64,000 nucleotides of DNA from Candidatus Aenigmatarchaeota archaeon (GTDB lineage: Archaea; Aenigmatarchaeota; Aenigmatarchaeia; GW2011-AR5). Shown here in pieces: positions 3,185-37,147 of this stretch; the first letter of the stretch is position 1; every line of letters starts with the position of its first letter. A model generated the notes under the pieces. It searched no databases, was not told the DNA's origin, and saw only the letters and a program-made list of their open reading frames with translations. The position numbers and the translations under genes were made by a program. The stretch spans positions 704,001 through 768,000 of the forward strand of contig JACPJW010000001.1 in assembly GCA_016187335.1 (NCBI GenBank). The letters run 5' to 3'.

Positions 3185-3233
3185 CTTAATATTTTTCTTT
3201 CCGCAGGCGCTTTCTTTTCCAAAAAGAAAGGGC
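3185..3233 (-). repeat. Family-B hairpin repeat, intergenic copy directly after the rpoA2 stop
   Basis: GCCCTTTCTTTTTGGAAAAGAAAGCGCCTGCGGAAAGAAAAATATTAAG closely matches the tRNA-Tyr 59/60 and tRNA-Thr D-loop introns. Confidence 0.85.
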
Positions 3234-5711
3234 CTATTTTTTCTTCTTCATCTTTGACAAATCCATCGTGAGCTCGACCATGCCCGTGCCGATGGGTGCC
3301 AGCTGCCCTACCAGCACGTTCTCGATTATCCCGTCCATGGTGTCCTTCTCGCCGTAGAACGACGCGTTTATCAGGTGCCTTTTTGTTTCCTCAAAGTTCG
3401 CCCGCGCCAGGACGGACGCCTTTTTGCCGGATACGCCGTATCGCCCGATGTCCCTGACCTCCCCGGTGAATGTCATGATGTCAGCAAGAAGCATCAGATG
3501 CCTTACATCAACCTCAAGGCCCTGCTCGTCTAAGGTTTCCTTGGCTTCCTGCAAAATAACATTTCTCGTGGCTTCTATGCCGAGTATCTCGAAAATCTGG
3601 TGCACGTCGTTCGTCCTTGTCCTTTTTGCGTCAACTTCGTTTATCTGCAGGACCTTTTTCAGGTTAGTCCCTGCGGTCTGTATGACCCAGTCGTCGCCCT
3701 CGCGCACCACGACGACATTCTCTATCCCCTTGATGCCGTCAATGTGCATCTTCAGGACCTTGTTTTTTATTTTTCTGAGGTTCTTGACGTCGCTTTCCTT
3801 CGGCTTTATGTAGACATTCCCGCCCCTGAAGGAAATGGCCGCCTCTTTGACGTATTTGGAGACCATTGATTTGAGCTGCTCTTTGTGCTTTTCGCCCTCA
3901 AGCTCCAGCTCAATCTGCATGTCAATAAGGTCTATGGAATCGGAAAGTATCACATCTTGCACTTTTACGGATTTCATCCTGTTCGCAATTTCCTTTGCCT
4001 TTTCCTTGCTGTTGTATTCTTCTTTCAGGTAAATGATCATGTTCTTCTCAAAAGTCTTGCGGGCGTCAAAAATCTCTATGAGCCTCGGCAGGCCCTGCGT
4101 GACCTTGCTCAGCCTGTCTGACTGCGAAGCCAGCGTATAGGAACGCATTGTGTTGTGTGTAATAATGCCTTCAAATGTCGTGAATGTTTCCGTGCCTTCA
4201 ACCGTCAGATCGTAGACATATCCAGAAGAAGGCAAAACTTCTGTTATTTCAGTTATCTCATCCCAAACGACATCAGATGCATGCATCTTTCTGAGTATCG
4301 AAAGCTCTTCAGTCACATCAATGTGATTTTTCTTTGCAATCTCGTTGAATAATACAATATATCTAAGTAGGGCTTCTTTTCCAATTTTCTGCCTTTTTGT
4401 GAAGCTGTTTACATACCTGCTTGGATAACTCAGTTTCTTCGCAAGCTTTGGAAGCAGATCGTCGAAGCCGCCTACAAGCTCGACAAAATCTTGCTTGATG
4501 GGTTTGCTAGCACACAGTACTCCAAGATTCTCGGCCTTTTTGGCGGAACTAAACCCGATTTTTTGCCGGAATACAGATGCGTATTTTGCGGGTATTGTTA
4601 GTGTATATTGCTTGCCTCTTCCTTTGTAAGAGAATATGCCAAATCTCGCTAAGAGTAGTGAGATGCCGTCTATAAGCTCTTTTGAATTTGAAGAAGCCCT
4701 TATTACGCCTCTCTCGACAGATACATTCCCATCGCCGTCGAAATAAGCCTGCAAAAGCGCCGATACGAATTTCTCATCAGCACTGTACGCAAAATCAGGG
4801 ACTCTCTTGTTCCTTGATCCACTACCGCATGTTTTTGCAAGTAGGGCGGAAAGAATAGCGGAATTTACATGAATATCATGGCCGTTTGCAAATCCTCTTG
4901 TGTTGTCATATTCATTATAGGTCAGGCCGAATGAAGAGGCAAATTGTCTTATTCTCCCGAGGAAAATTTCATTTGTGCTTGATATGCATACAAAATTCGG
5001 AGTGCAGTTTCCTTCGGAGAGATAAGCGCCGAAAATATATCCCGTAACCTCATTCAGCGGAAAGATTTCCGGCAAAGGCTTTTTGGCACGTGAAAAATGG
5101 GTTTCTGCAATCGATTTTAGGTTAATAGAATCTATGCAGTTTTCAGGAAGCAGCTTGATTACCGGTATTCTCTCGCCTTTTCTCAGGTCTTTTCCGGAAA
5201 CAGCAACTATCTTGTTATGCTTTCTTATAACAAATGAATGAGAATCTGTGGCTATTATCTCGCGCCCTGACAGTGTTCTTATTCTCAGCAGCCTTTCCGG
5301 TGATTTGTGTCTGCTGCATGCAAGAACCTTTTTCCATTCGATTTTCTCCCCCTGATTTATGCTGGGAACGTATATTTCCATGCCCGAAAGATCGCATATA
5401 TCCCAGCCATTCTCGTTCATAGAACCCAGATTTTCTATTGATTCATCGGTAAAGCGGCTAATTTCAGAAATGGCAACCCGGTCTTTATGCTTGATAATTA
5501 TTTTTTCCTTGGCGTCAATGCTCATCTGCGTCGCCGGTTCGCTGATTGATTGCGCTGCAACGACGCCTATTGCCTCGCCGGGTTCGTAAAGGTATTTCAC
5601 GATAAGATGATTTAATTTTTCCAGCAGTTCTTCTTTTTTCTTCCCTTCAATCCCGTGCTTCCTGCAGTATTCCTCGAATTTCAGCAACACTTCCTTTGAA
5701 AGATAAGCCAT
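3234..5711 (-). CDS. rpoA2: DNA-directed RNA polymerase subunit A'' (Rpo1C), intein-containing precursor
   Basis: EPGEAIGVVAAQSISEPATQM, GLPRLIEI, DVRHLMLLAD and SVLARANFEE. Confidence 0.97.
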   Translation of the reverse strand: MAYLSKEVLLKFEEYCRKHGIEGKKKEELLEKLNHLIVKYLYEPGEAIGVVAAQSISEPATQMSIDAKEKIIIKHKDRVAISEISRFTDESIENLGSMNENGWDICDLSGMEIYVPSINQGEKIEWKKVLACSRHKSPERLLRIRTLSGREIIATDSHSFVIRKHNKIVAVSGKDLRKGERIPVIKLLPENCIDSINLKSIAETHFSRAKKPLPEIFPLNEVTGYIFGAYLSEGNCTPNFVCISSTNEIFLGRIRQFASSFGLTYNEYDNTRGFANGHDIHVNSAILSALLAKTCGSGSRNKRVPDFAYSADEKFVSALLQAYFDGDGNVSVERGVIRASSNSKELIDGISLLLARFGIFSYKGRGKQYTLTIPAKYASVFRQKIGFSSAKKAENLGVLCASKPIKQDFVELVGGFDDLLPKLAKKLSYPSRYVNSFTKRQKIGKEALLRYIVLFNEIAKKNHIDVTEELSILRKMHASDVVWDEITEITEVLPSSGYVYDLTVEGTETFTTFEGIITHNTMRSYTLASQSDRLSKVTQGLPRLIEIFDARKTFEKNMIIYLKEEYNSKEKAKEIANRMKSVKVQDVILSDSIDLIDMQIELELEGEKHKEQLKSMVSKYVKEAAISFRGGNVYIKPKESDVKNLRKIKNKVLKMHIDGIKGIENVVVVREGDDWVIQTAGTNLKKVLQINEVDAKRTRTNDVHQIFEILGIEATRNVILQEAKETLDEQGLEVDVRHLMLLADIMTFTGEVRDIGRYGVSGKKASVLARANFEETKRHLINASFYGEKDTMDGIIENVLVGQLAPIGTGMVELTMDLSKMKKKK
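4152..5522 (-). mobile_element. Intein (457 aa) with a LAGLIDADG homing endonuclease, in RpoA''
   Basis: Inserted between TQM and TMR; starts with Ser (SIDAKEK), ends GIITHN before Thr+1; block B ATDSHSF; motifs GYIFGAYLSEG and ALLQAYFDGDG; visibly more AT-rich than the exteins. Confidence 0.95.
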
Positions 5712-5756
5712 TTTTAATCACCATCATCAGGGCTGAACTTTATTTTTAACATTGTT

Positions 5757-8237
5757 TTATTTCACGCCGTGGAAAAGCTTTTCAATGTCAACCTTGCCCG
5801 CGTCGCTTTTGGCGGGGTCAACCATGTCCTCGCCCGCGACAAACTGTATGATAAAGTTCTTGCTGTCGCGCACGGTGCCGTCGTATTCCACTCTCAGGTC
5901 CTGCAGCGCGTTGACCAGGCGGCGCTCCATGTACCCGGAGTGCCTTGTGTGCAGCGACTTGTCCATCAGGTTCTCCCTGCTGTTCATGGCGTCAAAGAAA
6001 AACTCCACGGGGTCAAGACCTTTCTTATAGCCGCTCGAAACGAAGCCGTGGGATTTCGCGCCAAGGTCGCCTCTTTCAAACAGCGACAATGTCCTTCCCA
6101 CGAAGCCCCTGTGTATCCTCTCGCCTTCCAGGGCCTCCTGCCCGACAAACGCGCACATCTGCGTAAGGTTGACAAAGGAGCCTCTCGCGCCTGTTATAGC
6201 CATTATGACCGCTGTCGTCAGAGGCAGGTCTTTCTTGACGGTTTCTGACGCGCTGTTTGACGCGAGGCCGCCTAATTGCAGTATTTTGTTTTCCAGGGTC
6301 ATCTCCGGCGTCAGTCCCCCTGTCTTTTCAAGGCGGCCTGCTTTGTAGTCCCTGACCAGCCTCGAAATGCTTTCGTTGTACTCATCAATTACTTTTTCAA
6401 TATTGTTTTTCGCGCGCGTTGAAATGTCTATGTCGCCGACGGATATGCTGAATCCTTTCCTTGTGATGACTTCCAGGGCGAGCTTGGAAACCCTGTCGAT
6501 GAATTCCCTCGCTGCGGAGTGGCCGTATATCCTTTCTATTATGTCGATGAGCTTTGCTTTTTTCTCTCCCAGCGCGTCGTCATCAATGACGCCCCTGAGA
6601 AGCCGCCCGTTCTTTATCACGACAGCTTCACCTGTGGACGACTTGAATTCAATGCTCAGGTCTTTCGGCAATAAGTAAGAAAAAATCTCCTTTCCCGTGT
6701 AGGTATCCTTGACCTCAGGGAGCTCCATCCCTATAGACATCAGCAGCTCCGCGGCTTCTTTTCGGCTGAGCTTTGTCTCGTCCCTTGTAAGCAGATAAGA
6801 GCCGGTTATGTGGTCGTGCTTGCACGCAACTATGGGCAGCCCGTATCGCGGCGAGCGGATGTGGTTTTCCACGGCCATCAGCATCTCCGCTTCCGTCTGC
6901 GCTTCCTCTGTCTGCGGAACGTGCAGGTTCATTTCGTCGCCGTCAAAGTCCGCGTTGTATGGTATCGTCACCGCGAGGTTCAGCCTGAAAGTCCTGTAAG
7001 GCATGATGCGCGCGCGGTGGCCCATCATGCTCATGCGATGCAGCGACGGCTGCCTGTTCATGACCGTTATGTCGTTGTCCTGCAGATGGCGCTCCACGAC
7101 GTAGCCGGTATCAATCTCTTCCGCTACGTCTTTTTTGTTTTCCTCTGTTATTTTTTTTCTTATCCCGTCCGGCCTCACGACATAATTCGCGCCCGGATGC
7201 ACGCCCGGCCCGTTAAGTATGTATTTCTTGACGGCATCAAGGCTGTTTTTCGTCACCTTCACGGGAACGGTAAGCTCTTTCGCGATTTCCATGGGTATTC
7301 CCACTTCGCTTATTGAAATATTGGGGTCCGGCGTGACAACGGTTCTCGCGGAAAAATTAACACGCTTTCCGGAAAGGTTTCCGCGGAACCTCCCCTCTTT
7401 TTTGCTCAGCCTCTGCATCAGCGTTTTCAGCGCCCTGCCTGACCTGTGGCGCGCCGGCGGCAGCGTTGAAATCTCGTTGCTCATGAACGTTGAGATGTGG
7501 TATTGCAGTAATTCCCAGATGTCGGCGATGATAAAATCAGGCGCGCCGATTTCCAGATTTTTCTTCAGTCTTTCGTTTATCCTTACGACGTCAACCAGCT
7601 TGTGCGTCAAGTCATCTTCCGAGCGTTCGCCTGTTTCCAGGGTGATTGAAGGGCGCACGGTCACGGGAGGCACGGGCAGTATGGTAAGGACAAACCATTC
7701 AGGCCTTCCGCCTTTCACCCTGAGCAGCTGTAAATCTTCATCAGTGATTTTTTCCAGCCGCTGCCTTATTTCCTCGGGATTCATCTCTGTGCTGCCTTCG
7801 TTGAATGTGGTCGGCTTCTGGAACGTCAGCTCCCTTTGCTTTTCGCCGCAGTGTATGCACATCTTCGGCTTCTTCTTGTACAGTTCGTTGAGCGGGTTGC
7901 CCATCTTCTTCAGGTCTTCCAGCTTCGCCAGCGGACGCGAGCATTTCCTGCATATCGAGCGCAGCACCATAAAAATCTTTTTTCCGTACAGCGGGTGTAT
8001 TGCCGGCTTCGTCAACTCAAGGTAGCCGAAATGCCCCAGGCATTGCCCTATGGAGCCGCCGCACGTCCTGCACCGCAGGCCGGGGTCGACAACGCCGAGG
8101 TGCAGGTCAGTCAGCCCGCCGTCTATCGGGTAGCCGTCAGGATCGTAAAGCTCCGCGTGCTCAATCTTCACCGCCGACATTTCCTTAATCATGCGCGGCG
8201 ACAGGAATCCGAACTCGATTGCTTTTACTTTTGCCAT
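5757..8237 (-). CDS. rpoA1: DNA-directed RNA polymerase subunit A' (Rpo1N)
   Basis: Catalytic NADFDGDEMN, NRQPSLH, GKRVNFSAR, clamp Zn motifs. Confidence 0.98.
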   Translation of the reverse strand: MAKVKAIEFGFLSPRMIKEMSAVKIEHAELYDPDGYPIDGGLTDLHLGVVDPGLRCRTCGGSIGQCLGHFGYLELTKPAIHPLYGKKIFMVLRSICRKCSRPLAKLEDLKKMGNPLNELYKKKPKMCIHCGEKQRELTFQKPTTFNEGSTEMNPEEIRQRLEKITDEDLQLLRVKGGRPEWFVLTILPVPPVTVRPSITLETGERSEDDLTHKLVDVVRINERLKKNLEIGAPDFIIADIWELLQYHISTFMSNEISTLPPARHRSGRALKTLMQRLSKKEGRFRGNLSGKRVNFSARTVVTPDPNISISEVGIPMEIAKELTVPVKVTKNSLDAVKKYILNGPGVHPGANYVVRPDGIRKKITEENKKDVAEEIDTGYVVERHLQDNDITVMNRQPSLHRMSMMGHRARIMPYRTFRLNLAVTIPYNADFDGDEMNLHVPQTEEAQTEAEMLMAVENHIRSPRYGLPIVACKHDHITGSYLLTRDETKLSRKEAAELLMSIGMELPEVKDTYTGKEIFSYLLPKDLSIEFKSSTGEAVVIKNGRLLRGVIDDDALGEKKAKLIDIIERIYGHSAAREFIDRVSKLALEVITRKGFSISVGDIDISTRAKNNIEKVIDEYNESISRLVRDYKAGRLEKTGGLTPEMTLENKILQLGGLASNSASETVKKDLPLTTAVIMAITGARGSFVNLTQMCAFVGQEALEGERIHRGFVGRTLSLFERGDLGAKSHGFVSSGYKKGLDPVEFFFDAMNSRENLMDKSLHTRHSGYMERRLVNALQDLRVEYDGTVRDSKNFIIQFVAGEDMVDPAKSDAGKVDIEKLFHGVK

Positions 8238-8238
8238 G

Positions 8239-8562
8239 TCAATCCCTCATCTTAATGCCGGTTTCTTTTCCAAGAAATCTTCTCTCTTCTGCTGTCAGAT
8301 CCATTCTTGTCATTCCTGTTCTTTCCACCAGTCTTTCTATTTCTGCTTCGGCGTATTCCAAAAGAGGCCCGGTAGCAATTACAGCAAGCTGTTCTTTGTC
8401 TCTTTGAATCAGGGACACGCTGTACCTTTCTGCAATCAGCTGCGCAAAATATCTTCCCGCGTCAGGGTGTTCCACCAGTCTGATACCTGCTATTCCCTGG
8501 GCAAATCTCCTGACTCCTTCCGGAATTTCTTCATTCCAATGATAAATGTCAGCATTGAACAT
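8239..8562 (-). CDS. Hypothetical protein between rpoB and rpoA1
   Basis: 107-aa co-oriented ORF with 1-2 nt gaps on both sides. Confidence 0.7.
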   Translation of the reverse strand: MFNADIYHWNEEIPEGVRRFAQGIAGIRLVEHPDAGRYFAQLIAERYSVSLIQRDKEQLAVIATGPLLEYAEAEIERLVERTGMTRMDLTAEERRFLGKETGIKMRD

Positions 8563-8564
8563 GC

Positions 8565-11500
8565 TTATTCCTCCGCGATTATCTTCGGGTATATTCCCAG
8601 GGACTTCAGCTCGTCCAGCATCAGTTTGAACGCGTAGCTGATGTCAATGTCAATGATTTTTGATTTCTTGCATACGCCGCAGTATTTTTTGCCCTTGACG
8701 CGGTCTTCCACGGCGATCAGGCCGCAGCGCTCGCATACGGGCACGCTGTATTTGTCGCTGCTGAAGCGCTCTTTGAGCAGGAGGGCGCTGCCATGAGCGA
8801 TTAAGCAGTCCTTTTCCATTTCCCCCAGGCGCAAGCCGCCCTGCTTCGCCCTTCCGGCAGTAGGCTGCTTGGTCAGCAGCGTTACAGGCCCGCGGGCTCT
8901 GGACTGTATCTTGTTCGCAACCATATGATGCAGCTTCTGGTAATAGCACGGCCCTACAAGTATGCGCGCCTCGAGCACGCGCCCTGTCACGCCGTCGTAC
9001 ATTATTTCCTTGCCGTCGTCGCGGAACCCGAGCTTTTCCAGTGTCTGTCTCAGGCTTTCTTCCGTGACGTCGTTGAAGGCGGAGCCGTCCACGGGCATGC
9101 CTGATAATGCCGAGACTTTCGAGGCGATGATTTCAAGCATCTGGCCTATTGTCATCCTGCTCGGTATCGCGTGCGGGTTGACTATTATGTCAGGCGTGAT
9201 GCCGCCCGTTGTGAATGGCATGTTTTCTTCAGGCACGATCAGGGATATGACTCCTTTCTGGCCGTGGCGCGACGCGAACTTGTCGCCAAGTTCCGGCACC
9301 CTTTCGCTTCTGACGTTCACTTTCACTAGTTTGTTTCCTGCCGACGTTTCCGAGAGGAATACGCCGTCAACAATGCCGTCCTCGCCGTGCCTTATCGTTT
9401 CCGATGTTTCCCTGCGGTTCTCTGTCTCGGCCATAAAGCTTTCCACGGGCCCGATGAAGCGGAGCGGCGACACCTTGCCGACAAGAACATCTCCGGAAAT
9501 GACAGAAATTTCCCTGTTCACTATCCCGTCCTTGTCGAGGTTTGCGTAAGCTTCCTCGGTGCGGTAGCCGTTGACGGCCTTGTCCGGTATTTTTATCTCG
9601 TCCTTTTCAATGCCCCAGTATTTCTTTTCTTCCGTTGAGTACGCCCTGAAGAAGAACGAGCGGCCGAAGCCCCTGTCGAGCGAAGCCTTGTTGAATACCA
9701 GGCCGTCCTCCATGTTGTACCCCTTGTAGCTCATGATGGCAAGGACGATGTTCTGGCCCTGCGGGTGCTCTTCCAGTCCGATTTCTTTGCCGACGACCGT
9801 GTTCACCAAAGGCATCTGCGTGTAAACAAGGACGTCCGCCTTCGTTTCTGTTCTTATTGAAAAGTTTGTCGTGTAAATGCCCAGCGCCTGGCCGGACATC
9901 TTCGCGCCGAAGTTGACGCGGTCCCCCCTGTTCCTCGTAGGGAACGGGACAAGCGATGCCGACAAGCCTAAAATCACGCCCGGGTGCACTTCCAGGTGCG
10001 TGTGGTCTTTTGACAGGTTATCCGCAGTCAGCGCAACAAGCATGCTGTCTTCTTCCTGGGCGTCTAGATATTCCACGATGCCTTCCTTCAGCAGCTCGCC
10101 CCACGCCATCTCGCCATTTACCAGCTTTTCCAGGTGCTTTTCAGTCAGCCTTGCTTTCCCGTTTTCAACAATAATCATCGGCCTTTGCAGCCTTCCTGAA
10201 TCCGTGTTCACGAAAACCTCCTGGAAATCCTCCTCAACGGCAACATTGATGTAGCGGCTTATCGCGCCGTTTCTTCTCTTCTGCTTTATTTTTTCTGCGA
10301 ATTCCCTGGGCTTGTCCGTCGTGCCTATGATATTCCCGTTAAGGAAAATAGTGTACCCGCCGCTCTCCTTTGACGCCGTTTGCGCGATGAGCTCGTTGTC
10401 CTTTCGCGGCGCTGTATCGGAGATGACGGCAAAGGTGGCTAAATACTTGCGGAGGCCTATGTTGACGCCTTCGGGAGTTTCCTCGGCGCACAGCCTTCCC
10501 CAGTGCGTTGCGTGCAATGCCCTCGCTTCAAAGTGCTCCTGTGAGGACGACAAAGGCGATATGACGTTTCTCAGGTGGGCTATTGTTCTCACGTAATTTG
10601 TCCTTTCCAGCCGCTGGCAGACGCCCGTCCTGCCGCCGATCCACTGGCCCGTCGCCATGTGCGAAATAATCCTTTTTGTCAGGTAATCCGACTCCACTAT
10701 GGATTTTATTGAAGGCAGCTTTCCGCGCTTCACCAGTTTCTGGTAAGAATAAACTATCCTTGAAACCAGGCCGTACTTGCCGAGGAGGATTGAGCGGAAA
10801 AGTATTTCCATGAAATCCCCGACGAGGCGCAGGCGCTTGTTTGAATAATGGTCAATGTCCTGCTCCTTCGCTTTTTTCAGGCCCAGGCGCAAAAGCTTTC
10901 GGACAACCTTGCAGAGGTAAACTGCCTTTTCTTTTCTTGCCTTCTTGTCCTGGCCGATGTGGGGAAGCAGGTATTTGTCCAGGATGTCGTTCACGCGCTT
11001 GTCGCGGTATTCCTGCTGAGGTATCTTCAGCTTCTTCCCTAAATGGTCCTTCGCTTCCTCGACGCTCTTGACGTCGTATTCATACAGGTTGAAGTAAATT
11101 TCCTGGACCTCGTCCTTTTCACCGGTTATGGCCTCGATTATCTCTTTGTCCGTCTCCATTCCCAGAGCGCGAAGGAGCACTACTACAGGCAGTTTTTTCA
11201 GGTTGGCAAAGGAAATTGTTATGATGCCCCCTTTCCTTTCCAGGAGATGCCTCTGGACGAAGCCGGACGACTCGCTGTTGATGCGGGCGGTTTCGTTCTC
11301 CCCCTTTGTCTCGATGACGGGCCTGTTCGACAGGACTTCTTCCACCATCACGATTACGCGCTCGGTTCCGTTGATAATGAAATAGCCGCCCGGGTCGTTA
11401 GGGTCTTCGCCCTCTTCAGCCAGCTGCTCTTCGGTGAGCCCTTCAAGCCAGCACAGCTTTGATTTCAGCATTATGGGCAGATCCCCGAGTTTTACTTCCT

Positions 11501-12137: not shown

Positions 12138-12283
12138 AAAATCACCTAAGAGGAGAAGAAACCTACGGTTTCCCTGCGGAGAACTTGAAAAGTTCTCCGA
12201 GGTCTCGAAAAGCTTTCGCTTTTCGCAGATCTCCCTCTACCCTCATTTCCCTTATTATTTTTAAGACCTCTGAGAAGGTCTTC

Positions 12284-12659: not shown

Positions 12660-12879
12660 CGCCTTGGCCGGGATATTCGGAACTTTCCCTTTTCCTCGAA
12701 GAACGTTAGTTCTTCGGGATCTTGGAGAACTTTCGTTCTCCACAGATGATTGAACTTTTTGGAAAAGTTCATTCGAACCCGGGTCGTAGCCGTTCTATGA
12801 TTTTTCCGTTGACGCTTTTGCTCGCCAGCGGAAAAGGGTCATGACAGGGCTACATGCTAGACCGCTACACCACCAAGGC
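12660..12879 (-). tRNA. tRNA-Asp(GUC) with two introns: 37/38 (12793-12841), 59/60 (12674-12771)
   Basis: 73-nt mature cloverleaf, acceptor GCCUUGG/CCAAGGC, G73; strict BHB at 59/60 (UUCG/CGAA central helix). Confidence 0.92.
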
Positions 12880-13528: not shown

Positions 13529-13719
13529 CCCGCGATAGCTCAACGGTAGAGCGCCCGGCTGTAGCTTAGCACTGCAGAACAAAGCTGTGTTATGATTCAG
13601 CAGCCGCTCACTAGAAACCGGGAGGTTGCCGGTTCGAAAGACCCTTTTCTTTTGGAAAGAAAAGCGTCTACGGAAAAGAAAATATTAAGGAAAGGGGTCC
13701 GAAACTCCGGCTCGCGGGA
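13529..13719 (+). tRNA. tRNA-Tyr(GUA) with two introns: 37/38 (13565-13616), 59/60 (13639-13705)
   Basis: C1-G72 acceptor CCCGCGA/UCGCGGG, A73, anticodon arm CCCGG-CUGUAGA-CCGGG; strict BHB at 59/60. Confidence 0.92.
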
Positions 13720-19337: not shown

Positions 19338-19540
19338 GCCACGCTAGCTCAGTAAGCCCTTTTCTTGGAAAGAAAAGCGCTTGCGGAAAAAGAACATATT
19401 AGGAAAAGGGCTGGAGAATGGTAGAGCGTTAGTGAAATGACACCGCTAAACCTTGGTAAGGAACTTTTCAAAAAAGTTCCATCAAAACGGAAAAACCAAC
19501 AAAGAGGTAAAGGCCCCGAGTTCGATCCTCGGGCGTGGCT
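19338..19540 (+). tRNA. tRNA-Thr(GGU) with three introns: 16/17 (19354-19418), 28/29 (19431-19449), 37/38 (19459-19504)
   Basis: 73-nt mature cloverleaf, acceptor GCCACGC/GCGUGGC, U73, anticodon arm UUACC-UUGGUAA-GGUAA; AGCG/CGCU central helix at 28/29. Confidence 0.88.
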
Positions 19541-28797: not shown

Positions 28798-28811
28798 GAA
28801 ATAACCTTAAG

Positions 28812-28930: not shown

Positions 28931-29232
28931 TTACCTGCGAGTGGTTAAGACCTTCGAGTGCCTGGAACTAGCCCAGCGATTCGGAGCGTTCCGGAAATTT
29001 CCCTCGATGTCAAGGAGAGCTTCTCACCGAACAGGTACTCTTCGTCCCCTGACGAGCCAGTGTGCGCGGTGCAGGCCTGATGCTCGGGGTTTTGAGAGAA
29101 CTGTCTGACCACAAGCGGTCTGCCAGGGCTGGAAAGAACCGCTTACCATTCGAGATAACTTGTTATCAAGCGCTGTGCGGCGTCCTGCGACCCCAGCGCG
29201 CGCCATGCCCGAACTCGGAGCGTTTGTTCGTT

Positions 29233-29829: not shown

Positions 29830-29919
29830 TCCTGCTCGTTACGGGTTCACTTCTTCGCTTTGATGCCTGGTTCATGTGGCACGTCGCGGATTCATCAGTG
29901 AGCCCCCAGAGCCCATAGA

Positions 29920-30519
29920 TCATTTCGCGTGGTGCGCTGTTGACATGTCGCCGACGGCAGAGTAGACTCGGCCGGCCTTCACCAGATCTCGGTACGGAAT
30001 GTTGATCTGAGGGCACTCGTGGATTCCCAGGAGGTGTGCGATTTCGTCATTCTTGCGCGTGCCATCAGTCGGTGAATACGCGAAGGTTTCTATCTCCACG
30101 AACCAACCCAGAGGCTCGACCATATCGAGAGCTACGATGCTGTCTAGGTCAGCCCTGAAAACCAAACGATGCTTCTTGACCGCAACGTATTCGACGAAGT
30201 CTAACTGCCTGAGCATCAGGCGGATCTTATCGCTCTGACCGGTTATGTCCACGTTAATTTCCTGTTTCCAATACTGGCCACGCTCGCGCATTGCTCTTGA
30301 GGTGGGGGGCTTCCACGTGACTTGCTCAAACGTAGGCGTAATGCGAACCCTGAGACATTCCTCCGTCTTGATGAAGTCGTTGTGCTTTGATGTATAGTAT
30401 ATGTCTTCCTGGTCCTCCCGCTCAGTTTGTTTCCATCCCAATTCAGCGAGTTTTGCCATTAACGAACTGGCATCTGCTCCAACGTACAACTTCATCTCAA
30501 TTTCTTTTCTGTTTGCCAT
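29920..30519 (-). CDS. CYTH-domain protein (class IV adenylate cyclase / triphosphate tunnel metalloenzyme)
   Basis: N-terminal EIEMK, QEDIYY, LRVR, KHR, LGWFVEIE, C-terminal PYRDL. Confidence 0.9.
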   Translation of the reverse strand: MANRKEIEMKLYVGADASSLMAKLAELGWKQTEREDQEDIYYTSKHNDFIKTEECLRVRITPTFEQVTWKPPTSRAMRERGQYWKQEINVDITGQSDKIRLMLRQLDFVEYVAVKKHRLVFRADLDSIVALDMVEPLGWFVEIETFAYSPTDGTRKNDEIAHLLGIHECPQINIPYRDLVKAGRVYSAVGDMSTAHHAK

Positions 30520-30532
30520 TGATTACCATCTC

Positions 30533-31861
30533 CTAAGACTGTGGTTGGTTGGGATTCGGGGGCTCTTGATAGGCTGCGTTGCGGAATACCGCAAACTGGT
30601 ATATCCCGCGGATTGTGTTCATTTCAAACAGGTTCGCTTTCTCCGTGGTGCCAGTTAGTGCAGCGAACTCATTCCGGCTTAGGAAGTGCCGACCGGCGTC
30701 GCGTAGGAACTTCAGGTAGTAGCGGTGCCGCACTCTCCCCCACGTGCTTTCGAACTGTGGGTCCATAATTTCGATAATGCACGATATCTTGCCGACTCGG
30801 ATCACTTCATTAATCAGGGTCTTGACGGCGCGCACGTTCTCCATGTGATGTAGTACATTCTTGCAGAGCACAAAGTCGAAGTGGTTGTCACCAAATGGGA
30901 GGCGTCGCGCGTCATGATTAGTAAACAGGATGAATGAGCTGATATTGCGGAACGTAGGGCTACTAAATCGTTCGCTCATGAGCTTGATCTGGCTCCACGA
31001 CACATCGTTTCCGACCACTAGCCGCACACCGGGTAGCTGTGTAAACCTGAGAACGGCGGTATTCTCGCCGCACGCTACGTCAAGTATCGTGTCATGCTTG
31101 CACGCCTGCGTGATTTCGAGGATCTTGGCTTCTAGATCCTGGATCGAGTGCTGGAAGTGGAACCGCCCCAACGATCTGAAGAGGGGCTTCACCACCGCAT
31201 CGTGGAATGCGTAGCGGGATCCGTATTTTATGTTCTCTTCAACCTCGAACTCCGGGACCGAGTCGAGGTCCAGGCTACGGACGTAACTGCGAGCTAGTTC
31301 TACTACGGTTTTGTTGTGCAGCAGACCAACTGGAACCGAGGTATCCTCGCACGGGACCAGATGCCCTCTCGAATGGACGGCGGCCTTGAGGTCCTGCTGT
31401 GGATCCATGTTTCTGATTCGGCCCACAAATGCTATGCCGCGGTGGAAGTGTTCCCGTCCCTCGTAGCGGAAGCGATTCTCGAGGAAGGCGATGGGTTCTA
31501 CCTCGCCCAGTTGCAGGTTTCTGATAGTCTTGGACGCATGGCGGTTGGCGGCATCGATGAAGGTTTCCGTCAAGTCTCTTCGAAGACTGCCGCCGACCAG
31601 GACCCACGCGAGTTGGTTGCTCGCAAAGGATCGTTCTAATAGGAATTCTTTGTGTTTAGTATATGGTAGCATGAGCACGAAATAGCGGCGCGCCAGACAG
31701 TACTCGAACGAATACCTGTCCTGCAGGGTGACCTCATGTTGGATGCGCGGAGCTGACGCATACAGCTCGGTGTAGACCGAGTACAGATCGTCGAGATACG
31801 CATCGGTGTCTTGAAACGCCCGATACGCTATGCGTTCACGGCCCGACGACACTTCTGGCAT
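30533..31861 (-). CDS. Degenerate Nudix-like domain fused to a class I SAM-dependent methyltransferase
   Basis: FLLERSF..WVLVGGSLRRDLTETFIDAANR (Nudix-like); ILDVACGENT, GNDVS, DARRLPFGDNHFDFVLCKNVLHH; start re-chosen at MPEVSS (the ORF is open to 32164). Confidence 0.8.
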   Translation of the reverse strand: MPEVSSGRERIAYRAFQDTDAYLDDLYSVYTELYASAPRIQHEVTLQDRYSFEYCLARRYFVLMLPYTKHKEFLLERSFASNQLAWVLVGGSLRRDLTETFIDAANRHASKTIRNLQLGEVEPIAFLENRFRYEGREHFHRGIAFVGRIRNMDPQQDLKAAVHSRGHLVPCEDTSVPVGLLHNKTVVELARSYVRSLDLDSVPEFEVEENIKYGSRYAFHDAVVKPLFRSLGRFHFQHSIQDLEAKILEITQACKHDTILDVACGENTAVLRFTQLPGVRLVVGNDVSWSQIKLMSERFSSPTFRNISSFILFTNHDARRLPFGDNHFDFVLCKNVLHHMENVRAVKTLINEVIRVGKISCIIEIMDPQFESTWGRVRHRYYLKFLRDAGRHFLSRNEFAALTGTTEKANLFEMNTIRGIYQFAVFRNAAYQEPPNPNQPQS

Positions 31862-32238
31862 CTTCCAGGCCCTTGCTCCCTCGGAAGCCCGTTTGTCCCC
31901 CGCCGCGTCTATAATACCATAGGCTAGCGTTGCCGCAAGTTTGGGCCTTTGAGCCTTAGGCTCAGGTATGGGCCCTTGGCTTGGATTCGCCGAGCCTACA
32001 TTGCCCGCGCCAAGGCCGTCATTGGCGTCTGCTGAGGCCCGCCAGCCTTGCCGCCGCATAAGGGCGACATCTGTGTGAATCAAAGCTAGCGCGAAGCTGG
32101 AATCCGTGGGACGGGATGGTGCTGCGTGATGCGGAGAGATGAGCTGCATGCACATTATTTGCACTGAAAGCTTTTGAGTGTTTCCCGTGGCGGGTGATTG
32201 TAAGCTTTTGTCCTGAGCGGCTGTGACTGTTCTGATAA

Positions 32239-32278
32239 GAGGGTTCCGGAAATTTCCTTACATGTGATGGACGAGCAG
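32239..32278. repeat. 40-bp direct repeat, right copy
   Basis: GAGGGTTCCGGAAATTTCCTTACATGTGATGGACGAGCAG. Confidence 0.9.
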
Positions 32279-32389
32279 CCACTCAGCAGTGACGATAAAC
32301 AGGATCTCCACGAACCGCATGCAATGCCGCAGTAGTAAGTAAGTAATTACTCAAAATCATCGGTGCCCCGAGCACCTTTCAGCTAAACT

Positions 32390-32659
32390 TCAACGTGCAG
32401 TCATCCGGCTGGTTTCTGATTCTTTGTTCCCTCCGTTCACGAGGTCATCAATACCTATGAGGAGAAAGCAGATTCCCAAGACAGCGCTGAACGCCACCTC
32501 TAGCCACCACTGAAAGGGGATAGGTAGGCCTCTGAAAGACTGATCGATTATGAATTCGCCGGTTTCCGCGGCATACCTGAATAGAACAAACGAGAATCCT
32601 ATGTGGGCAAGCGCCGAGACCAACCAGCGGTTGGCACGGAGCCATCCAGCGGAGAACAT
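32390..32659 (-). CDS. Small two-TM membrane protein inside the element
   Basis: Two hydrophobic segments; 89 aa. Confidence 0.55.
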   Translation of the reverse strand: MFSAGWLRANRWLVSALAHIGFSFVLFRYAAETGEFIIDQSFRGLPIPFQWWLEVAFSAVLGICFLLIGIDDLVNGGNKESETSRMTAR

Positions 32660-32701
32660 AGTGGTACTATTTCTAGCGCAACCTTCTTAAAGCGTTAACG
32701 T

Positions 32702-33457
32702 TCAGCACCCGCTCCGGCCCAGTGGCAAGTAAATGCTTATGGTCGAAATTTGTACGCCTACTGTGACGCGAGCAGCAAAGCGTCTACACGCCTGAAACTG
32801 CCTCGTGACGGATCGAGGGCTTCCCCCCGGTCGCTCTGGCGGCCCAACGGCGCTGGTAGCCTCCGCCACACCAGAAGCCTCGACTATATAAGACCCCGGC
32901 GTCACCCCATAGACCACGAAGTTGGTCGGGAAGTGTGAGAGTGTCTCGGTGTGAATGAGATTCCCATGCTGCCCGAAAATGTGGACGCCGATTGGCTTCA
33001 GGATGCTTCTATCCGCCCCCGTTACGGTAACCCGTAGCTGATATGCAATGTCGACGGTGGGCCTCTGCGGAGGACCCTGTACTACCACCCAGTTCCCAAA
33101 ATATACGGCCATCGTTGTACTTTTGCCTTCAGGGTCCCGGCTGTAGTTCACGGTACCTCTGTAGCCAACTCTGATTCTAAGGGCTACCGCAGCTGGAGCT
33201 TCAACAGAAAAATTCGCCGGACGGCTGTCACCTGGGGGGACGATGCCAAGATCCTCGAAATCACGCGGGACAGGTGTCGGAGATGAAGACGAGCAATGTG
33301 TTCTATTTGCTGGAGATGGATCTGGCTCCTGAACAAGAACGGGCGTTGGTAGGCCTCGGGTTTGGCTGGTTCCTGGAACTGCGCGAGCGATGGCGACGTG
33401 CCAAAGAGCCGGCAACTGAATGGCAGGGTCGTGCACAGGGGCGCTAAGCCGCAGCAA
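32702..33457 (-). CDS. Hypothetical beta-rich protein, possibly an Ig-like fragment; start uncertain
   Basis: VVYGVTPGSYIVEASG resembles carboxypeptidase-regulatory-like beta sandwiches; the N-terminal third looks non-coding. Confidence 0.35.
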   Translation of the reverse strand: MLRLSAPVHDPAIQLPALWHVAIARAVPGTSQTRGLPTPVLVQEPDPSPANRTHCSSSSPTPVPRDFEDLGIVPPGDSRPANFSVEAPAAVALRIRVGYRGTVNYSRDPEGKSTTMAVYFGNWVVVQGPPQRPTVDIAYQLRVTVTGADRSILKPIGVHIFGQHGNLIHTETLSHFPTNFVVYGVTPGSYIVEASGVAEATSAVGPPERPGGSPRSVTRQFQACRRFAARVTVGVQISTISIYLPLGRSGC

Positions 33458-33502
33458 AGAACCTGCGTGTTGGGAATCAAACTTCGGAGCAGTCCTTTAC
33501 TT

Positions 33503-34774
33503 CTATCGTCTCTTTGCCAGCTTCCGGAGTTCTTCCCGCCGCCTCACCCTGAGCAGTTCCTCGTTCGACATCGCCGCCATCTTCATGAGCGTAGGAAGGG
33601 CTCCTTGGATTTCCTTGACTTGCTTCAGCGTAGATGCCATGTCAGAGAACTCCAGGGAGAAGTTGCAGTTCTCACAGATCCTCGCCTCGGGACTGTTGAA
33701 CGCCTTGCAGTTCCAGCATAACAGAGGCTTTTCCAGCTCCTTCCTTATCTCATCCTCCGGCCGGAGCAGCCCATGTCGTTTGAGGATGGCCTCCTCGACG
33801 TCACGGTTGCTCATGTGCAGGTAGACCTCGAAGTGCTTACTGGTCGGAGTATGCCCCGTGATCCTCTTTACGATCTGATCCGGGTACTGCTGCACCAGGT
33901 GAGTCGTCCTGGAGTGACGCAGGATGTAAGGGTAAACCTTCTTCATAACGCCCGCGCGGCGTGCTATACCCTTCAGCATGCGGTTGAGTGCAGCCACGCC
34001 GATAATCTCGTCGTGCCGTGGATTCGCCTTCTGACGCAGCCATAGCAGCGCGTCAGGGTTCGCTCTGAGTGGGTGGATGTTTATCCATGCCCGGAGGTAC
34101 GTCGCAGCGTTGATTATGCGGATGGGCCGCGGCCTCGTCTTGCTGTGCTGGATGTGGACAACAGCACCGTACGGGTCAAAGGTCACATTCCCGATTCTCA
34201 ACGTCAGCAGCTCAGAAGGACGCGCAGCTGTCTCGTAAGCCACACTGATGAGAGCTTTGTCTCTCGTGTTCGTCGCCGTGGCGATCAGGCGTTCAACCTC
34301 ATCTACATCAAGGGTCTGACCTTCTTCCACCCTCGACTTTTTCGCATTGCTGGGAACCGACGTGCGGAGCCACTCGAAATCCCTTGGATTATACTTGCTT
34401 CCCTTGAGCCACTTGACGAAGACTTTCAGCCCAGCCCTCATGTCCGCCCTGTACCATTCGGAACAGAGAGCTGGCTTCTCATCGGCACGGCTGGCTGCGC
34501 CATGCGGTGGCTCCCTTTTCGTGAGGTCGTTCAGCCGGCCTACAAGGCGCCGAAAGTCCCGAACGCTGTACTTGTCGACGTCCTTCCCGAGCAAAGGGCC
34601 AATCCGAAGAAAGAGAAAGGCGTACTTCCTCATTCTGGCCGCCGAAACGCGCGCCGACATGTCATCGAGGAAATCCAGAATGAGCCGGCGGTTTCTTCGG
34701 GGCAGGTCGGACTCCTGAATCTCGCGCCTCCTCTTCTCGAATTCCTCCTTGTGCTTGTAGATCTGGACCTCCAT
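33503..34774 (-). CDS. Tyrosine recombinase/integrase with a C-terminal Zn ribbon
   Basis: TAARPSELL (R), SKT (K), YILRHSR, ITGH, EVYLH (Y), CWNC...CENC; start MEVQIY with a GAGG Shine-Dalgarno. Confidence 0.92.
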   Translation of the reverse strand: MEVQIYKHKEEFEKRRREIQESDLPRRNRRLILDFLDDMSARVSAARMRKYAFLFLRIGPLLGKDVDKYSVRDFRRLVGRLNDLTKREPPHGAASRADEKPALCSEWYRADMRAGLKVFVKWLKGSKYNPRDFEWLRTSVPSNAKKSRVEEGQTLDVDEVERLIATATNTRDKALISVAYETAARPSELLTLRIGNVTFDPYGAVVHIQHSKTRPRPIRIINAATYLRAWINIHPLRANPDALLWLRQKANPRHDEIIGVAALNRMLKGIARRAGVMKKVYPYILRHSRTTHLVQQYPDQIVKRITGHTPTSKHFEVYLHMSNRDVEEAILKRHGLLRPEDEIRKELEKPLLCWNCKAFNSPEARICENCNFSLEFSDMASTLKQVKEIQGALPTLMKMAAMSNEELLRVRRREELRKLAKRR

Positions 34775-34830
34775 ATTCCCTCTTATTGCCCGCCCAATAT
34801 TTAAGGGTTCGGCATCGAACAGTTTTCCAA

Positions 34831-34991
34831 TGCCGAAGGCGAGAATCGAACTCGCGACCCCCACATTTCTCTTCAACGCGCATGCCGCTCAGAACTCATA
34901 ATTTTCAATTTCTTTGGTCTTTCTTTGGTCAAACTTTCTTTTCAAGAAAGTTTGTTATGAGTGTGGTGCTCTACCACTGAGCCACTTCGGC
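34831..34991 (-). tRNA. tRNA-Met(CAU), elongator-type (or Ile2), with a 37/38 intron (34867-34955)
   Basis: G1-C72 acceptor GCCGAAG/CUUCGGC, anticodon arm CCACA-CUCAUAA-UGUGG; the intron contains a family-A hairpin. Confidence 0.9.
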
Positions 34992-35041
34992 TTTCCGTTT
35001 TGATCAAACTTTTTTGAAAAGTTTGACTGAGCCACTTCGGC
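34992..35041 (-). repeat. Exact duplicate of the first 16 nt of tRNA-Met (35026-35041) followed by a family-A hairpin (34992-35025)
   Basis: ACTGAGCCACTTCGGC occurs at 34976-34991 and 35026-35041. Confidence 0.9.
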
Positions 35042-35100
35042 ACAAAGAGCAGAACCTGACGGTTCTCTCTCTTGACTCTCATTCCCTTATTATTTCTTGG

Positions 35101-35122
35101 TGCAACTTTTTGGAAAAGTTGC
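35101..35122. repeat. Family-A hairpin repeat, intergenic
   Basis: TGCAACTTTTTGGAAAAGTTGC. Confidence 0.75.
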
Positions 35123-35174
35123 CTCTATCCTCTTTTCCTTATTATGATTTTTAAACGCTTTTATTGAAGTATAA

Positions 35175-35723
35175 ATGATGGACCCGCTTAAATTCCGCGA
35201 ACTGCTGAGGCGCATTGAGTGGAAAAACCTTGCGCTGCTTGCCGTTGCGGTGGCACTCCTGGCGGCGTACTTCAAGCTTTTCATTATAACTGCCCTGATA
35301 GCTTCCGTGATTGCCGCCAGCCTTCTTGTCCAGAAGTTCCAGCTGCGGCTCTTCGGCTTTGAAACGGTAACCTTTTCCACTGTCATCATGGGGGTTGCCT
35401 ACGGCCCCGTGATAGGCGGAATATTCGGCATGGCCATGGTCCTTGTATCCCTGGTCATATCCGGATATTTCGGGATATACTATCTGTGGATCATACCCGA
35501 ATATGCCGTGGCCGCTTACCTTGCGTCGCAGTGGTACGGCGGCGACATACTTTCAGTGGGGCTGAACATAACGATTATCCTGCAGGTTGCAAACATCGTG
35601 CTCACCTATTTCTTTGACCGCTACAGCTTTTTCCAGCACATCGTTTACAGCGCGACGAACATTGTTTTCAATTTTGCCGCATTTGCTTTGTTCGGCCCTG
35701 TGCTCGTGGGCATCCTGAAATGA
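35175..35723 (+). CDS. Multi-TM membrane protein, ECF S-component-like, paralog 1
   Basis: FETVTFSTVIMGVAYGPVIGGIFG; about six TM helices. Confidence 0.7.
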   Translation: MMDPLKFRELLRRIEWKNLALLAVAVALLAAYFKLFIITALIASVIAASLLVQKFQLRLFGFETVTFSTVIMGVAYGPVIGGIFGMAMVLVSLVISGYFGIYYLWIIPEYAVAAYLASQWYGGDILSVGLNITIILQVANIVLTYFFDRYSFFQHIVYSATNIVFNFAAFALFGPVLVGILK

Positions 35724-35751
35724 ATTAAAGCTGTATCGTTCAGTTATTTTC

Positions 35752-36282
35752 ATGGCCGAACTGCTTTCGCGGATAGAATGGAAGAACGTCGCGCTGCTTG
35801 CCGCGGCCCTGGCTTTGGTAGCTGTCTACGCCAAATTATTTGCGGTTGTCCTGCTCATCGCCGGTGTTGTTTTTGTGAGCTTCATTGTCCAGCAGTTCAG
35901 CCTGCGCACGGTAGGCCTTGAGCTCGTGACTTTTGCGACGGTTGTTTCCGGCATTGTCTACGGCCCTGTCGTGGGCGCGGCGCTGGGAGCGGTTCTGGTC
36001 CTGATACATCTTGTTTTCTCGGGTTATTTTGGTGTATATTATTTCTGGGTCATACCTGTTTACGCCTTTGGCGGCTTTCTGGCGTCAGCATGGTCAGGCC
36101 AGGGCGTGGTTTCTTTGGGCATCAACATAACCCTGGTCATCCACGCGATAAACATGGCTTTTACGTTTGCTCTCAACAGGAACAACATGTTCAACTACGG
36201 GCTTTACGCCGTGACAAATGTAGTCTTCAATTTCATTTTGTTCGTTGTTTTCGGCCAGGCTGTCGTGGGCATCCTGAAATGA
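35752..36282 (+). CDS. Multi-TM membrane protein, ECF S-component-like, paralog 2
   Basis: LELVTFATVVSGIVYGPVVGAALG; aligns with paralogs 1 and 3. Confidence 0.7.
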   Translation: MAELLSRIEWKNVALLAAALALVAVYAKLFAVVLLIAGVVFVSFIVQQFSLRTVGLELVTFATVVSGIVYGPVVGAALGAVLVLIHLVFSGYFGVYYFWVIPVYAFGGFLASAWSGQGVVSLGINITLVIHAINMAFTFALNRNNMFNYGLYAVTNVVFNFILFVVFGQAVVGILK

Positions 36283-36345
36283 AGCCGTAGTCTGCATTCA
36301 TGGAAGCTTTTCGTAATTTTTAACCCTTGCGTCCAATTATTTCTG

Positions 36346-36888
36346 ATGGTTGAAAGAATATCGTCCCTGCTGTCGCGCATTGATTGGAAGAACGTCGCGC
36401 TGCTGGCTGCCGCCGTCGCGCTGGCGGCTGCCTACTTCAAGCTCTTTGCCATAGTGTTCTTCATCGCAGCCGTGGTCGCGGTCAGCTTCCTGGTGAACCA
36501 GTTCCACATCCGCATTATTGGCATTGAACTGGTAACTTTTGCCACGGTTATTTCAGGCATCGTTTACGGCCCCGTGGTAGGAGCAGTAATGGGCGCGGTG
36601 CTGGTTTTCATAAGCCTTGTATTCTCCGGGTTTTTCGGGGTTTATTATTTCTGGCTGATTCCGGAATACGCTGCCGCCGGCTACCTGGCGTGGCTCTGGC
36701 GTGACCAGCCTATAGCCGCTCTTGGCATGAACATCCTGCTCATGGTCCAGGGGCTCAATATCGTCCTGACGTACCTGTTCGCAAGGCAGAACTTCTTCAA
36801 GTACGTTGTTTACATAGCCACGGAACTGGTATTTAATTTTATAATATTCTCCGTCTTCGGGGCGTGGGCTCTTGGTGTCCTGGCGTGA
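36346..36888 (+). CDS. Multi-TM membrane protein, ECF S-component-like, paralog 3
   Basis: IELVTFATVISGIVYGPVVGAVMG. Confidence 0.7.
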   Translation: MVERISSLLSRIDWKNVALLAAAVALAAAYFKLFAIVFFIAAVVAVSFLVNQFHIRIIGIELVTFATVISGIVYGPVVGAVMGAVLVFISLVFSGFFGVYYFWLIPEYAAAGYLAWLWRDQPIAALGMNILLMVQGLNIVLTYLFARQNFFKYVVYIATELVFNFIIFSVFGAWALGVLA

Positions 36889-36892
36889 GAAA

Positions 36893-37084
36893 TCAGGCCG
36901 TCACGAGTTCTACGTCCTTCACATCCACGGGCGGCACGACGTAAACGCGGGAGAAATCGTATTCAACGGCGTCGCCCTCGTAAGTTATCTCGCATATGTC
37001 TATGATTATTATCTTGAACTTTATGTCCAGGATTTCTCTTTCAAGGACCTTTTTCTGCGCTTTCACGATTTTCATTTCAATCAT
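36893..37084 (-). CDS. Small hypothetical beta-rich protein
   Basis: 63-aa ORF with host-like codon usage. Confidence 0.45.
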   Translation of the reverse strand: MIEMKIVKAQKKVLEREILDIKFKIIIIDICEITYEGDAVEYDFSRVYVVPPVDVKDVELVTA

Positions 37085-37100
37085 CCGTAGCGTTTTCTTT

Positions 37101-37147
37101 GATAATATTCTTTTCCGCCAGCGCTTTTCTTCCCCAAAGAAAAGGGC
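37101..37147 (-). repeat. Family-B hairpin repeat, intergenic copy
   Basis: GCCCTTTTCTTTGGGGAAGAAAAGCGCTGGCGGAAAAGAATATTATC on the minus strand. Confidence 0.85.

Follow-up and report, generated by a model that had tools for sequence, protein, structure and literature searches.

One small hairpin element of an Aenigmatarchaeota archaeon is found as bulge-helix-bulge introns of stable RNA genes and as unspliced copies at stop codons

Can one short sequence be an intron of several tRNA genes and, on the same chromosome, a repeat that lies outside any RNA gene? This question is raised by a stretch of 64,000 nucleotides (hereafter the window) from a Candidatus Aenigmatarchaeota archaeon, corresponding to C2:704001-768000 in a 1.01 Mb archaeal genome (47% GC, 91% complete) that is assembled into two contigs (C1 and C2). 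An initial annotation of the window had described five copies of an element of about 50 base pairs, here called family B, with three copies as tRNA introns at different positions and two copies outside any tRNA. By reading and aligning these stretches, we found all five copies (c1 to c5) where they had been placed, and we consider it almost certain that they belong to one family with a dual state: bulge-helix-bulge (BHB) introns at more than one tRNA position, and copies outside RNA genes that are not spliced.

The intron copies were verified by excision in silico, and the coordinates proposed for them turned out to be exact. Copy c2 (12793..12841, minus strand) interrupts tRNA-Asp(GTC) at 37/38, copy c3 (13639..13705, plus strand) interrupts tRNA-Tyr(GTA) at 59/60 and copy c4 (19354..19418, plus strand) interrupts the D-loop of tRNA-Thr(GGU). 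None of these genes has a single intron: the tRNA-Asp gene (12716..12879, minus strand) also contains a hairpin of a second family, called A (12730-12771), the tRNA-Tyr gene (13529..13719, plus strand) contains another intron at 37/38 that all relatives share (13565-13616), and the tRNA-Thr gene (19338..19540, plus strand) contains a 19-nucleotide intron (19431-19449) and a family-A hairpin (19459-19504). Once all introns of each gene were removed, ARAGORN called tRNAs of 73, 74 and 73 nucleotides for Asp, Tyr and Thr, respectively. In the unspliced window, ARAGORN called 0 tRNAs, and Rfam at gathering score found 1 tRNA and the 5S rRNA; standard finders thus miss tRNA genes of the window, which must be heavily interrupted. 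Using an enumerator written for this analysis (4-bp central helix, two 3-nucleotide bulges, cleavage 2 nucleotides into each bulge), we found a strict hBHBh' motif around c3, with an inner helix of 12 bp, an outer helix of 5 bp and a perfect 4-bp central helix, and the minimum-energy fold of c3 was also a textbook hBHBh'. The motif was relaxed around c4 (3/4 central-helix pairs, inner helix of 14 bp), the excision of which yields the D-loop AGUUGGUA. Around c2, the central helix H was complete (4/4) with an outer helix of 7 bp, and the inner helix was formed by U1 (UUUUCCG) pairing with CGGAAAA (folding z of -4.3).

The two other copies lie at or between protein-coding genes. Copy c1 (3187..3235, minus strand) was initially described as directly following the stop codon of rpoA2; the site is right, but the first two bases of the element (3235-3234) are the AG of the TAG stop that ends this 825-residue open reading frame (ORF) (3234..5711, minus strand; Pfam RNA_pol_Rpb1_5, Intein_splicing and LAGLIDADG_3). 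The length of the rpoA2 ORF is due to an intein with a LAGLIDADG domain, as seen from Pfam matches on identical Logan contigs. Downstream, about 15 nucleotides separate the end of c1 from the first ATG of an 85-residue L30e/L7Ae-family ORF (2915..3172, minus strand). Copy c5 (37103..37149, minus strand) lies about 270 nucleotides past an FtsZ-like ORF and about 18 nucleotides ahead of a 63-residue ORF. Comparing the copies, we saw that c1 consists of a 5' arm (AGG-CCC-U run), a loop, a proximal arm (A run-GCG-CCU), a G, CGGAAAG and the tail AAAAAUAUUA, and that it folds into a hairpin with one C.C mismatch. The same full element with its tail is found in c3, where it is followed by an additional distal arm (GAAAGGGGUC), by CGAA, which pairs with the T-loop UUCG, and by AC; c4 likewise contains the full element, with a ACAUAUUA tail, and a distal arm. 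The motif proposed to be shared by all five copies therefore holds for the core, but not for c2 beyond it, since c2 lacks the ATATTA tail and has a different inner hairpin.

Since these sequences are rich in A and T runs, the initial annotation had asked in advance for a shuffled-sequence control of the possibility that the copies only resemble each other by chance. The sequence is indeed of low complexity, and the folding z-scores of single free copies are weak (-1.1 to -1.9). Yet a degenerate core pattern matched 4 times in the window when 0.03 matches were expected (100 dinucleotide shuffles, 0/100 of which reached 4), and c4, the fifth copy, was missed by this pattern for the sole difference of a loop 2 nucleotides shorter. 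A profile built from the five copies gave about 40 further matches genome-wide (E < 0.01), and the perfect 3' core AAAGCG-N4-CGGAAA is present 48 times in the genome. When a full element was defined as this core plus a 5' arm within 90 nucleotides, with the three bases before CCC pairing with the first three of N4, we counted about 74 in the genome and 2-6 in shuffled genomes, showing that the original count of five, although made of real copies, was a large underestimate. Copies also resemble each other over much more than the core: c3 is 93% identical to a tRNA T-loop intron at C2:259493-259559 and 84% identical to c4, and copies in a second tRNA T-loop, in the signal recognition particle (SRP) RNA gene and at four or more stop-codon sites are 90-94% identical to c3. 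Such identity over about 50 nucleotides between loci, together with the shuffles, a reversed-pattern control that gave about 0 matches in most of 41 relatives' genomes (up to 6 in one), and the clamp-shuffle control described below, refutes chance likeness, to which we give a negligible probability.

From 5' to 3', the element is composed of clamp a (a3a2a1), CCC and a U run, a loop or a variable inner hairpin (sometimes a family-A hairpin), an A run and GCG, clamp b (b1b2b3) complementary to a, a purine (b4), and CGGAAA with an A/G run. In one subfamily, which is the presently active one, the tail AAAAUAUUA follows, and similarity ends sharply after it. CCC faces GCG in the hairpin formed by the 5' arm and the proximal arm, giving one conserved C.C mismatch that is retained in a shorter variant found in relatives. 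Among 111 distinct copies from this genome and its relatives, the clamp was fully complementary (3/3) in 95, compared to a mean of 18.7 and a maximum of 33 when clamps were shuffled between copies, and a3:b3 showed all four types of Watson-Crick pairs. The b1:b4 pairs were T-A in 47 copies, C-G in 55, T-G in 5 and others in 4, while a4:b4 was random. Both here and in relatives, covariation was also seen between three lengths: those of the 5'-arm U run, of the A run before GCG and of the A run that comes after CGG. The A-run, GCG...CGG, A-run arrangement may be read as a triple helix or mirror repeat, but this run-length covariation is equally explained by ordinary alternative pairing of the 5' arm with CGGAAA, as in c2. 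As for the tRNA-Asp 37/38 intron, a family-B intron is found at the same site in relatives G013, G005, G007, G014 and G021 (it is absent in three other genera), with the compensatory clamps TGA:TCA, CAA:TTG, AAG:CTT, AGG:CCT and GAG:CTC. Clamp covariation and these compensatory changes show that the structure is under selection, and, since proximal clamp b co-varies with a even in orthologous introns, that the proximal pairing itself is maintained.

What, then, distinguishes an intron copy from an unspliced one? When c3 and c4 were folded in their context, the 5' arm paired with the extra distal arm (AAAGGG and b) while the proximal arm was looped out, with inner helices of 13-14 bp in textbook BHB folds. 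Next to the distal arm, four nucleotides match the exon: CGAA faces the T-loop UUCG in c3, and GGAG faces CUCA in c4. In c2, the partner of the 5' arm is the CGGAAAA segment. Free copies have no distal arm and fold as the mismatched hairpin (-14.5 kcal/mol); a search of c1, c5 and 11 others detected no recurrent BHB in free copies, which are therefore not introns. From these folds, the 5' arm is predicted to have up to three partners, of which the perfect one wins when present. A more speculative and doubtful idea is that the 5' arm, the proximal arm, the CGGAAA repeat and the distal arm act together as a switch, bistable or triple-stranded, by which the timing of splicing would be set. The initial idea that the element lands in a tRNA and picks up BHB-forming flanks proved imprecise as worded: introns carry an additional internal distal arm and a 4-nucleotide complement of the exon, and both are missing from free copies. 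The splicing endonuclease EndA (C2:410532-410810, outside the window; PF01974, 97 bits) and the RNA ligase RtcB (61179..62423, minus strand; PF01139, 528 bits) are both encoded by this genome, and family-B inserts would probably be spliced by these two host enzymes. The RtcB match (61179-62518, minus strand) is split: a 427-residue frame covers residues 23-426, and the first 26 positions of the model match another frame, 18 nucleotides upstream. A frameshift, an error of assembly or a small insert could explain this.

The intron state extends well beyond the three tRNA genes of the window. By reading flanks, we found six copies directly after GTTC(G/A)A(A/T), as expected for T-loop introns at 59/60, about eight copies in D-loops, several at 37/38 or nearby and one in a tRNA 5' leader. 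An automated reconstruction of multi-intron tRNAs around all 48 perfect cores gave mostly spurious solutions or none; we relied solely on the run targeted at the Asp, Tyr and Thr genes of the window. One D-loop family-B intron (C1:26069-26161) contains four tandem 19-nucleotide repeats of the unit GAATGCACGGAAAGAAAAA, and similar tandem expansions are seen in introns of relative G015. The 16S gene (C2:239678-242953) is 3276 nucleotides long, compared to 1478 for the model, and contains about eight inserts of roughly 50, 57, 54, 47, 82, 599, 667 and 192 nucleotides, at least four of which have family-B cores. For one of these (C2:241909-241990), the central helix is perfect and the inner helix measures 9 bp, and excision of this insert restores the universal junction of GATTAGAT with ACCCCGGTAGTCC (motif GATTAGATACCC). 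A family-B intron of the 23S gene (C2:210345-210472) also has the features of a BHB. Finally, the SRP RNA gene (C2:74695-75085) has 391 nucleotides for a model of 317, with the model spanning a BHB-flanked insert of 120 nucleotides in the 5' domain (C2:74730-74849) that begins with a full family-B element; in the literature searched, no archaeal SRP RNA was described as having an intron.

If family B is an intron family, why do free copies exist and where do they lie? The initial annotation had proposed that they are an intergenic reservoir, and their location argues against this: in 12 of the 13 free copies with a tail, the stop codon of a long ORF (77-827 codons) lies 33-36 nucleotides before GGAAA, always in sense orientation, with c5 as the only tail-bearing free copy away from any such stop. 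One of the 12 (C1:53647) has its stop at -54, owing to a longer inner hairpin. In all 12, the stop codon overlaps or abuts clamp a. When the tail-less copy at a TGA (C2:38724) was added, 9/13 stop codons were TAG, compared to 19.8% genome-wide (p = 1.5e-4), the stop usually being TAG because the element begins with AG-purine. Over 779 ORFs of at least 150 codons, stop usage is TAA 43%, TGA 37% and TAG 20%. Since the intron state is widespread, old and found order-wide, free copies look like a side branch rather than a reservoir. A single copy was found inside a coding sequence: the C-terminal domain of prolyl-tRNA synthetase (ProRS) contains, in frame, a minimal family-B element of 36 nucleotides (C2:578093-578128), which adds 12 residues (DPFGKSVDGKHF) that are missing from every relative examined, including proteins that are 77% and 71% identical. 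This insert is flanked by an imperfect 7-nucleotide direct repeat (TTTCGAC/TTTCACC), within which its boundaries can slide, making the host origin of clamp a ambiguous there.

The position of free copies at gene ends could also mean that they are boundary signals, in which case the hairpin or U tract at the stop codon would terminate one gene, CGGAAA...AAAAUAUUA would provide an element resembling a B recognition element and TATA box for the next gene, and likeness to introns would be secondary. Several observations fit this hypothesis: free copies sit on or against stop codons, in sense; a T4-C-T4 tract makes up their 5' arm; without the 5' arm, the 3' module is also found alone or in tandem just ahead of ORFs (C2:256495-256543 and C2:520237); a start of L30e at the third ATG, which the N-termini of relatives suggest, would place ATATTA of c1 at about -29, where a TATA box usually lies; and two metagenomic relatives, L116 and L118, have tail-bearing copies at or near the rpoA2/L30e junction. 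When 666 upstream regions were analyzed, however, CGGAAA...ATATTA matched neither the TATA box of this genome nor its position, and the promoter reading was rejected: the TATA box is TTTAAA/TTTATA and peaks at -30..-26, whereas ATATTA only gives a small peak at -20, and CGGAAA and AAAGCG have no peak at a promoter position. The TATA peak, measured from start codons, implies that mRNAs are mostly leaderless, with GGTGA-type Shine-Dalgarno sequences on a minority. Moreover, a family-B copy is present at only about 1% of genes, two copies that face convergent genes retain the tail, the distance from tail to start codon varies from 14 to more than 40 nucleotides, introns of tRNA and SRP RNA genes, in which harm would be expected from a terminator or promoter, also contain the tail, and the core is conserved in relatives that have almost only intron copies. 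We therefore consider it unlikely that free copies are primarily boundary signals; at most, a few of them may also have been put to use as a promoter or terminator, for example c1 if the third ATG is the real start of L30e.

Relatives give information on the age of the family. The core pattern is present in 30/41 relatives, including other families of the order, with up to 29 matches per genome, and nearly every copy in relatives is a tRNA or 16S intron. The N4 variants that dominate differ from genome to genome (TGCA and TCTA in this genome, CCTG and CTGG in G033, TTGA and TTAA in G028, CTTG in G015), which points to within-genome spread or homogenization. The initial annotation had considered that copies at fixed orthologous positions in all relatives would contradict its proposal of mobility, and the answer differs between copies. 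The tRNA-Asp intron is an old copy, orthologous in several genera. In contrast, tRNA-Tyr genes of 12 other genera keep the 37/38 intron and have an uninterrupted T-loop (no 59/60 insert), nearly all of the 24 relatives from the family lack the element in the rpoA2/L30e spacer, as does the closest metagenomic relative, and the ProRS insert has no counterpart, as described above. Since these three sites are empty in relatives, the copies that occupy them are gains, and the proposal of mobility is borne out by these sites and by the 90-94% identical copies elsewhere; that gain is still ongoing seems likely to us. The same-genus genome G001 is 56% complete and lacks the first 20 kb of the window except for repeats, so that it gives no nucleotide-level empty sites for c1-c4.

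The initial annotation had also suggested that family B is related to miniature inverted-repeat transposable elements (MITEs) or repetitive extragenic palindromes (REPs), so that a transposase would move it as a classical non-autonomous DNA transposon of the MITE, REP/RAYT or IS200/IS605 type. Like REPs, bacterial interspersed mosaic elements (BIMEs) and IS200/IS605-derived palindromes, family B is short, multicopy, often located past stops and built as an imperfect-palindrome hairpin with a foot sequence complementary to the flank. A T precedes many copies, giving (G)TAG-like 5' edges, and the ProRS insert has its imperfect 7-nucleotide direct repeat. IS608-type elements use pairing between a guide and the target, and the clamp beside the insertion point of family B is similar. 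Nevertheless, no Y1/RAYT transposase was found in the genome (91% complete) apart from a 16.7-bit fragment of 45 residues with an internal stop, and neither TnpB nor a reverse transcriptase was found in it. No terminal inverted repeats were found either, the ends being AGRCCC... and ...ATATTA and the shared subterminal U/A run being a mirror, and no target duplication was seen at the 15 tail-bearing copies. The (G)TAG-like edge is ambiguous in this respect: many free copies read (G)TAG-R-CCC, but with the stop codon of the host as their TAG, and intron copies often lack it. The 13:0 sense bias of stop-codon copies would also not be expected from DNA cut-and-paste by itself. The suggested relationship with MITE/REP-like elements is thus not upheld, and movement by a transposase is, in our opinion, very unlikely.

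Another hypothesis is mobility at the RNA level, by which excised introns, with their 5'-OH and 2',3'-cyclic phosphate ends, would be ligated by RtcB into cleaved RNAs and then copied into DNA. Every context in which family B is found in this genome is transcribed and has the element in sense (tRNA, rRNA, SRP RNA, the 3' edge of mRNAs and one coding sequence), the 5' boundary of free copies (a3) corresponds to the nucleotide with which c3, c4, c2 and the 16S intron begin, and EndA and RtcB are present. Sense orientation and the shared 5' edge together suggest an RNA-linked process or strong selection at the RNA level. On the other hand, this route needs a reverse transcriptase, and none was found, as mentioned above; nor did the genome reveal a RelE/ParE-type A-site nuclease that could open mRNAs at stop codons, so that such a toxin was dropped as the candidate cutter. 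The last 18-20 nucleotides of introns (distal arm, CGAA and 2 nucleotides) are missing from free copies, which are therefore not simple copies of an excised intron. We regard this route as doubtful. Comparably doubtful is the possibility that the clamp is a guide, where 3-4 nucleotides of b would pair with a matching triplet of the host, and host enzymes of RNA processing or repair, working on transcripts or on single strands, would insert the element directly 3' of this triplet. Stop codons would then be capped because clamps of the active subfamilies read AGA, AGG, AAG, GAA and TGA. If true, family B would be a retargetable mini-element without any protein that creates BHB introns, which would be the first concrete route of archaeal intron gain.

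Considering all these observations, we favor, with moderate confidence, a model in which family B is a non-autonomous hairpin element, both old and still propagating, that resides in transcribed genes in sense orientation. In stable RNA genes, the distal arm and about 4 nucleotides complementary to the upstream exon would complete a BHB, so that RtcB and the host EndA, which has a broad specificity, could remove the insert, whereas copies in protein genes, having no BHB, would survive only where they are harmless, that is, at stop codons or, once, in frame in ProRS. New copies would be made by a host process acting in trans, and the conserved core may be needed by this copying process or by selection on RNA folding. 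The weak proximal hairpin could be metastable and give way to the distal arm. The ancestral niche would be that of introns, with stop-codon copies as by-products of the same spread.

Several points weigh against this model. Sense orientation is not absolute, since G014 has a family-B element inverted between rpoA2 and L30e (G014:C7:37790-37860) that seemingly overlaps the L30e start region. A search for RNA data of this organism found none: the only runs that contained words of the 16S locus had shares of 0.05-0.06, and showed the 16S of other organisms, which skips the inserts. Splicing and the fate of free copies are thus predictions. Copy c1 was found on 10/10 strain-level contigs around L30e, which give no presence/absence polymorphism at this site. 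With a genome that is 91% complete, an autonomous element could be missed, and any specific copying mechanism is at best an unlikely guess. Finally, the strict order-wide conservation of the core, with its conserved purine and CGGAAA, could reflect a host function instead of selfish spread.

Other short repeats share the window with family B. The family-A hairpin (xAAACUUUU-loop-AAAAGUUUx-AUCAAAA, frequently with CGGAAA after it) was counted 117 times or more in the genome; in the window it lies at 37393-37423 (minus strand) and in the tRNA-Asp and tRNA-Thr introns mentioned above (12730-12771, minus strand; 19459-19504, plus strand). Twenty-four of its copies overlap or abut the stop of an ORF of at least 60 codons, such as the TGA of the FtsZ-like ORF at 37421-37423, and other copies are tRNA or 16S introns or follow the 3' ends of tRNA and 16S genes. 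Its dual behavior is thus the same as that of family B, and its closing base pair likewise co-varies. Another short repeat, unrelated to family B, lies at 12151-12253 and is 83-95% identical to three contigs of G001.

How does family B compare with known systems? Families of transposed tRNA introns have been described in Thermoproteales (Fujishima et al. 2010), with lineage-specific gains, a mechanism that is unknown and a host EndA of broad specificity, as summarized later (PMC4090602; bioRxiv 10.64898/2026.10.13.758758). Like these introns, family B shows at least 80% identity across tRNAs and positions in one genome (93% and 84% in the pairs given above), and, as in archaeal BHB introns of the EndA/RtcB pathway, its intron copies have hBHBh' or relaxed junctions; intron copies are thus filed as BHB introns of a transposing family. 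Unlike the Thermoproteales introns, family B is also found in 16S, 23S and SRP RNA, at stop codons and in one coding sequence, and it has a conserved structured core order-wide in hosts such as this small-genome archaeon outside Thermoproteales. ARMAN-2 has many disrupted tRNAs and a broad-specificity epsilon2 EndA, and positions 37/38, 59/60 and the D-loop are within the range reported for it; a shared intron core, free copies or an SRP RNA intron are not mentioned in the same papers (PMC3239211, PMC12397907). In contrast to REP/BIME sequences with their RAYT, family B is archaeal, comes without a RAYT or TnpA gene, is in sense only in this genome and also forms spliced introns. As for Rickettsia palindromic elements, it is a small palindromic repeat that is in frame in a coding sequence (ProRS) and also present in RNA genes and spacers, but the coding case is single, the sequences are unrelated and BHB splicing has no Rickettsia counterpart. 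What makes the family as a whole a new variant, in our view, is the range of its sites, with rRNA, SRP RNA, stop codons and a coding sequence among them, together with its order-wide structured core.

The arrival route of archaeal introns was still called open in a 2026 survey, and its census of Asgard tRNA introns revealed no donor, no link to a mobile element and no signature of reverse transcription (bioRxiv 10.64898/2026.10.13.758758). Family B gives a rare handle on intron gain in archaea, with recent copies of one family inside and outside RNA genes, and with dated gains at sites that are empty in relatives beside one ancient orthologous copy. The 36-nucleotide in-frame ProRS insert delimits the mobile core, and the distal arm is a simple sequence difference that divides spliced from unspliced copies. 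Heavily interrupted tRNAs such as those of the window, where ARAGORN called none and Rfam one, also escape standard finders. Intron gain thereby becomes testable, in vitro with the ARMAN-type EndA that has already been purified, and by population metagenomics.

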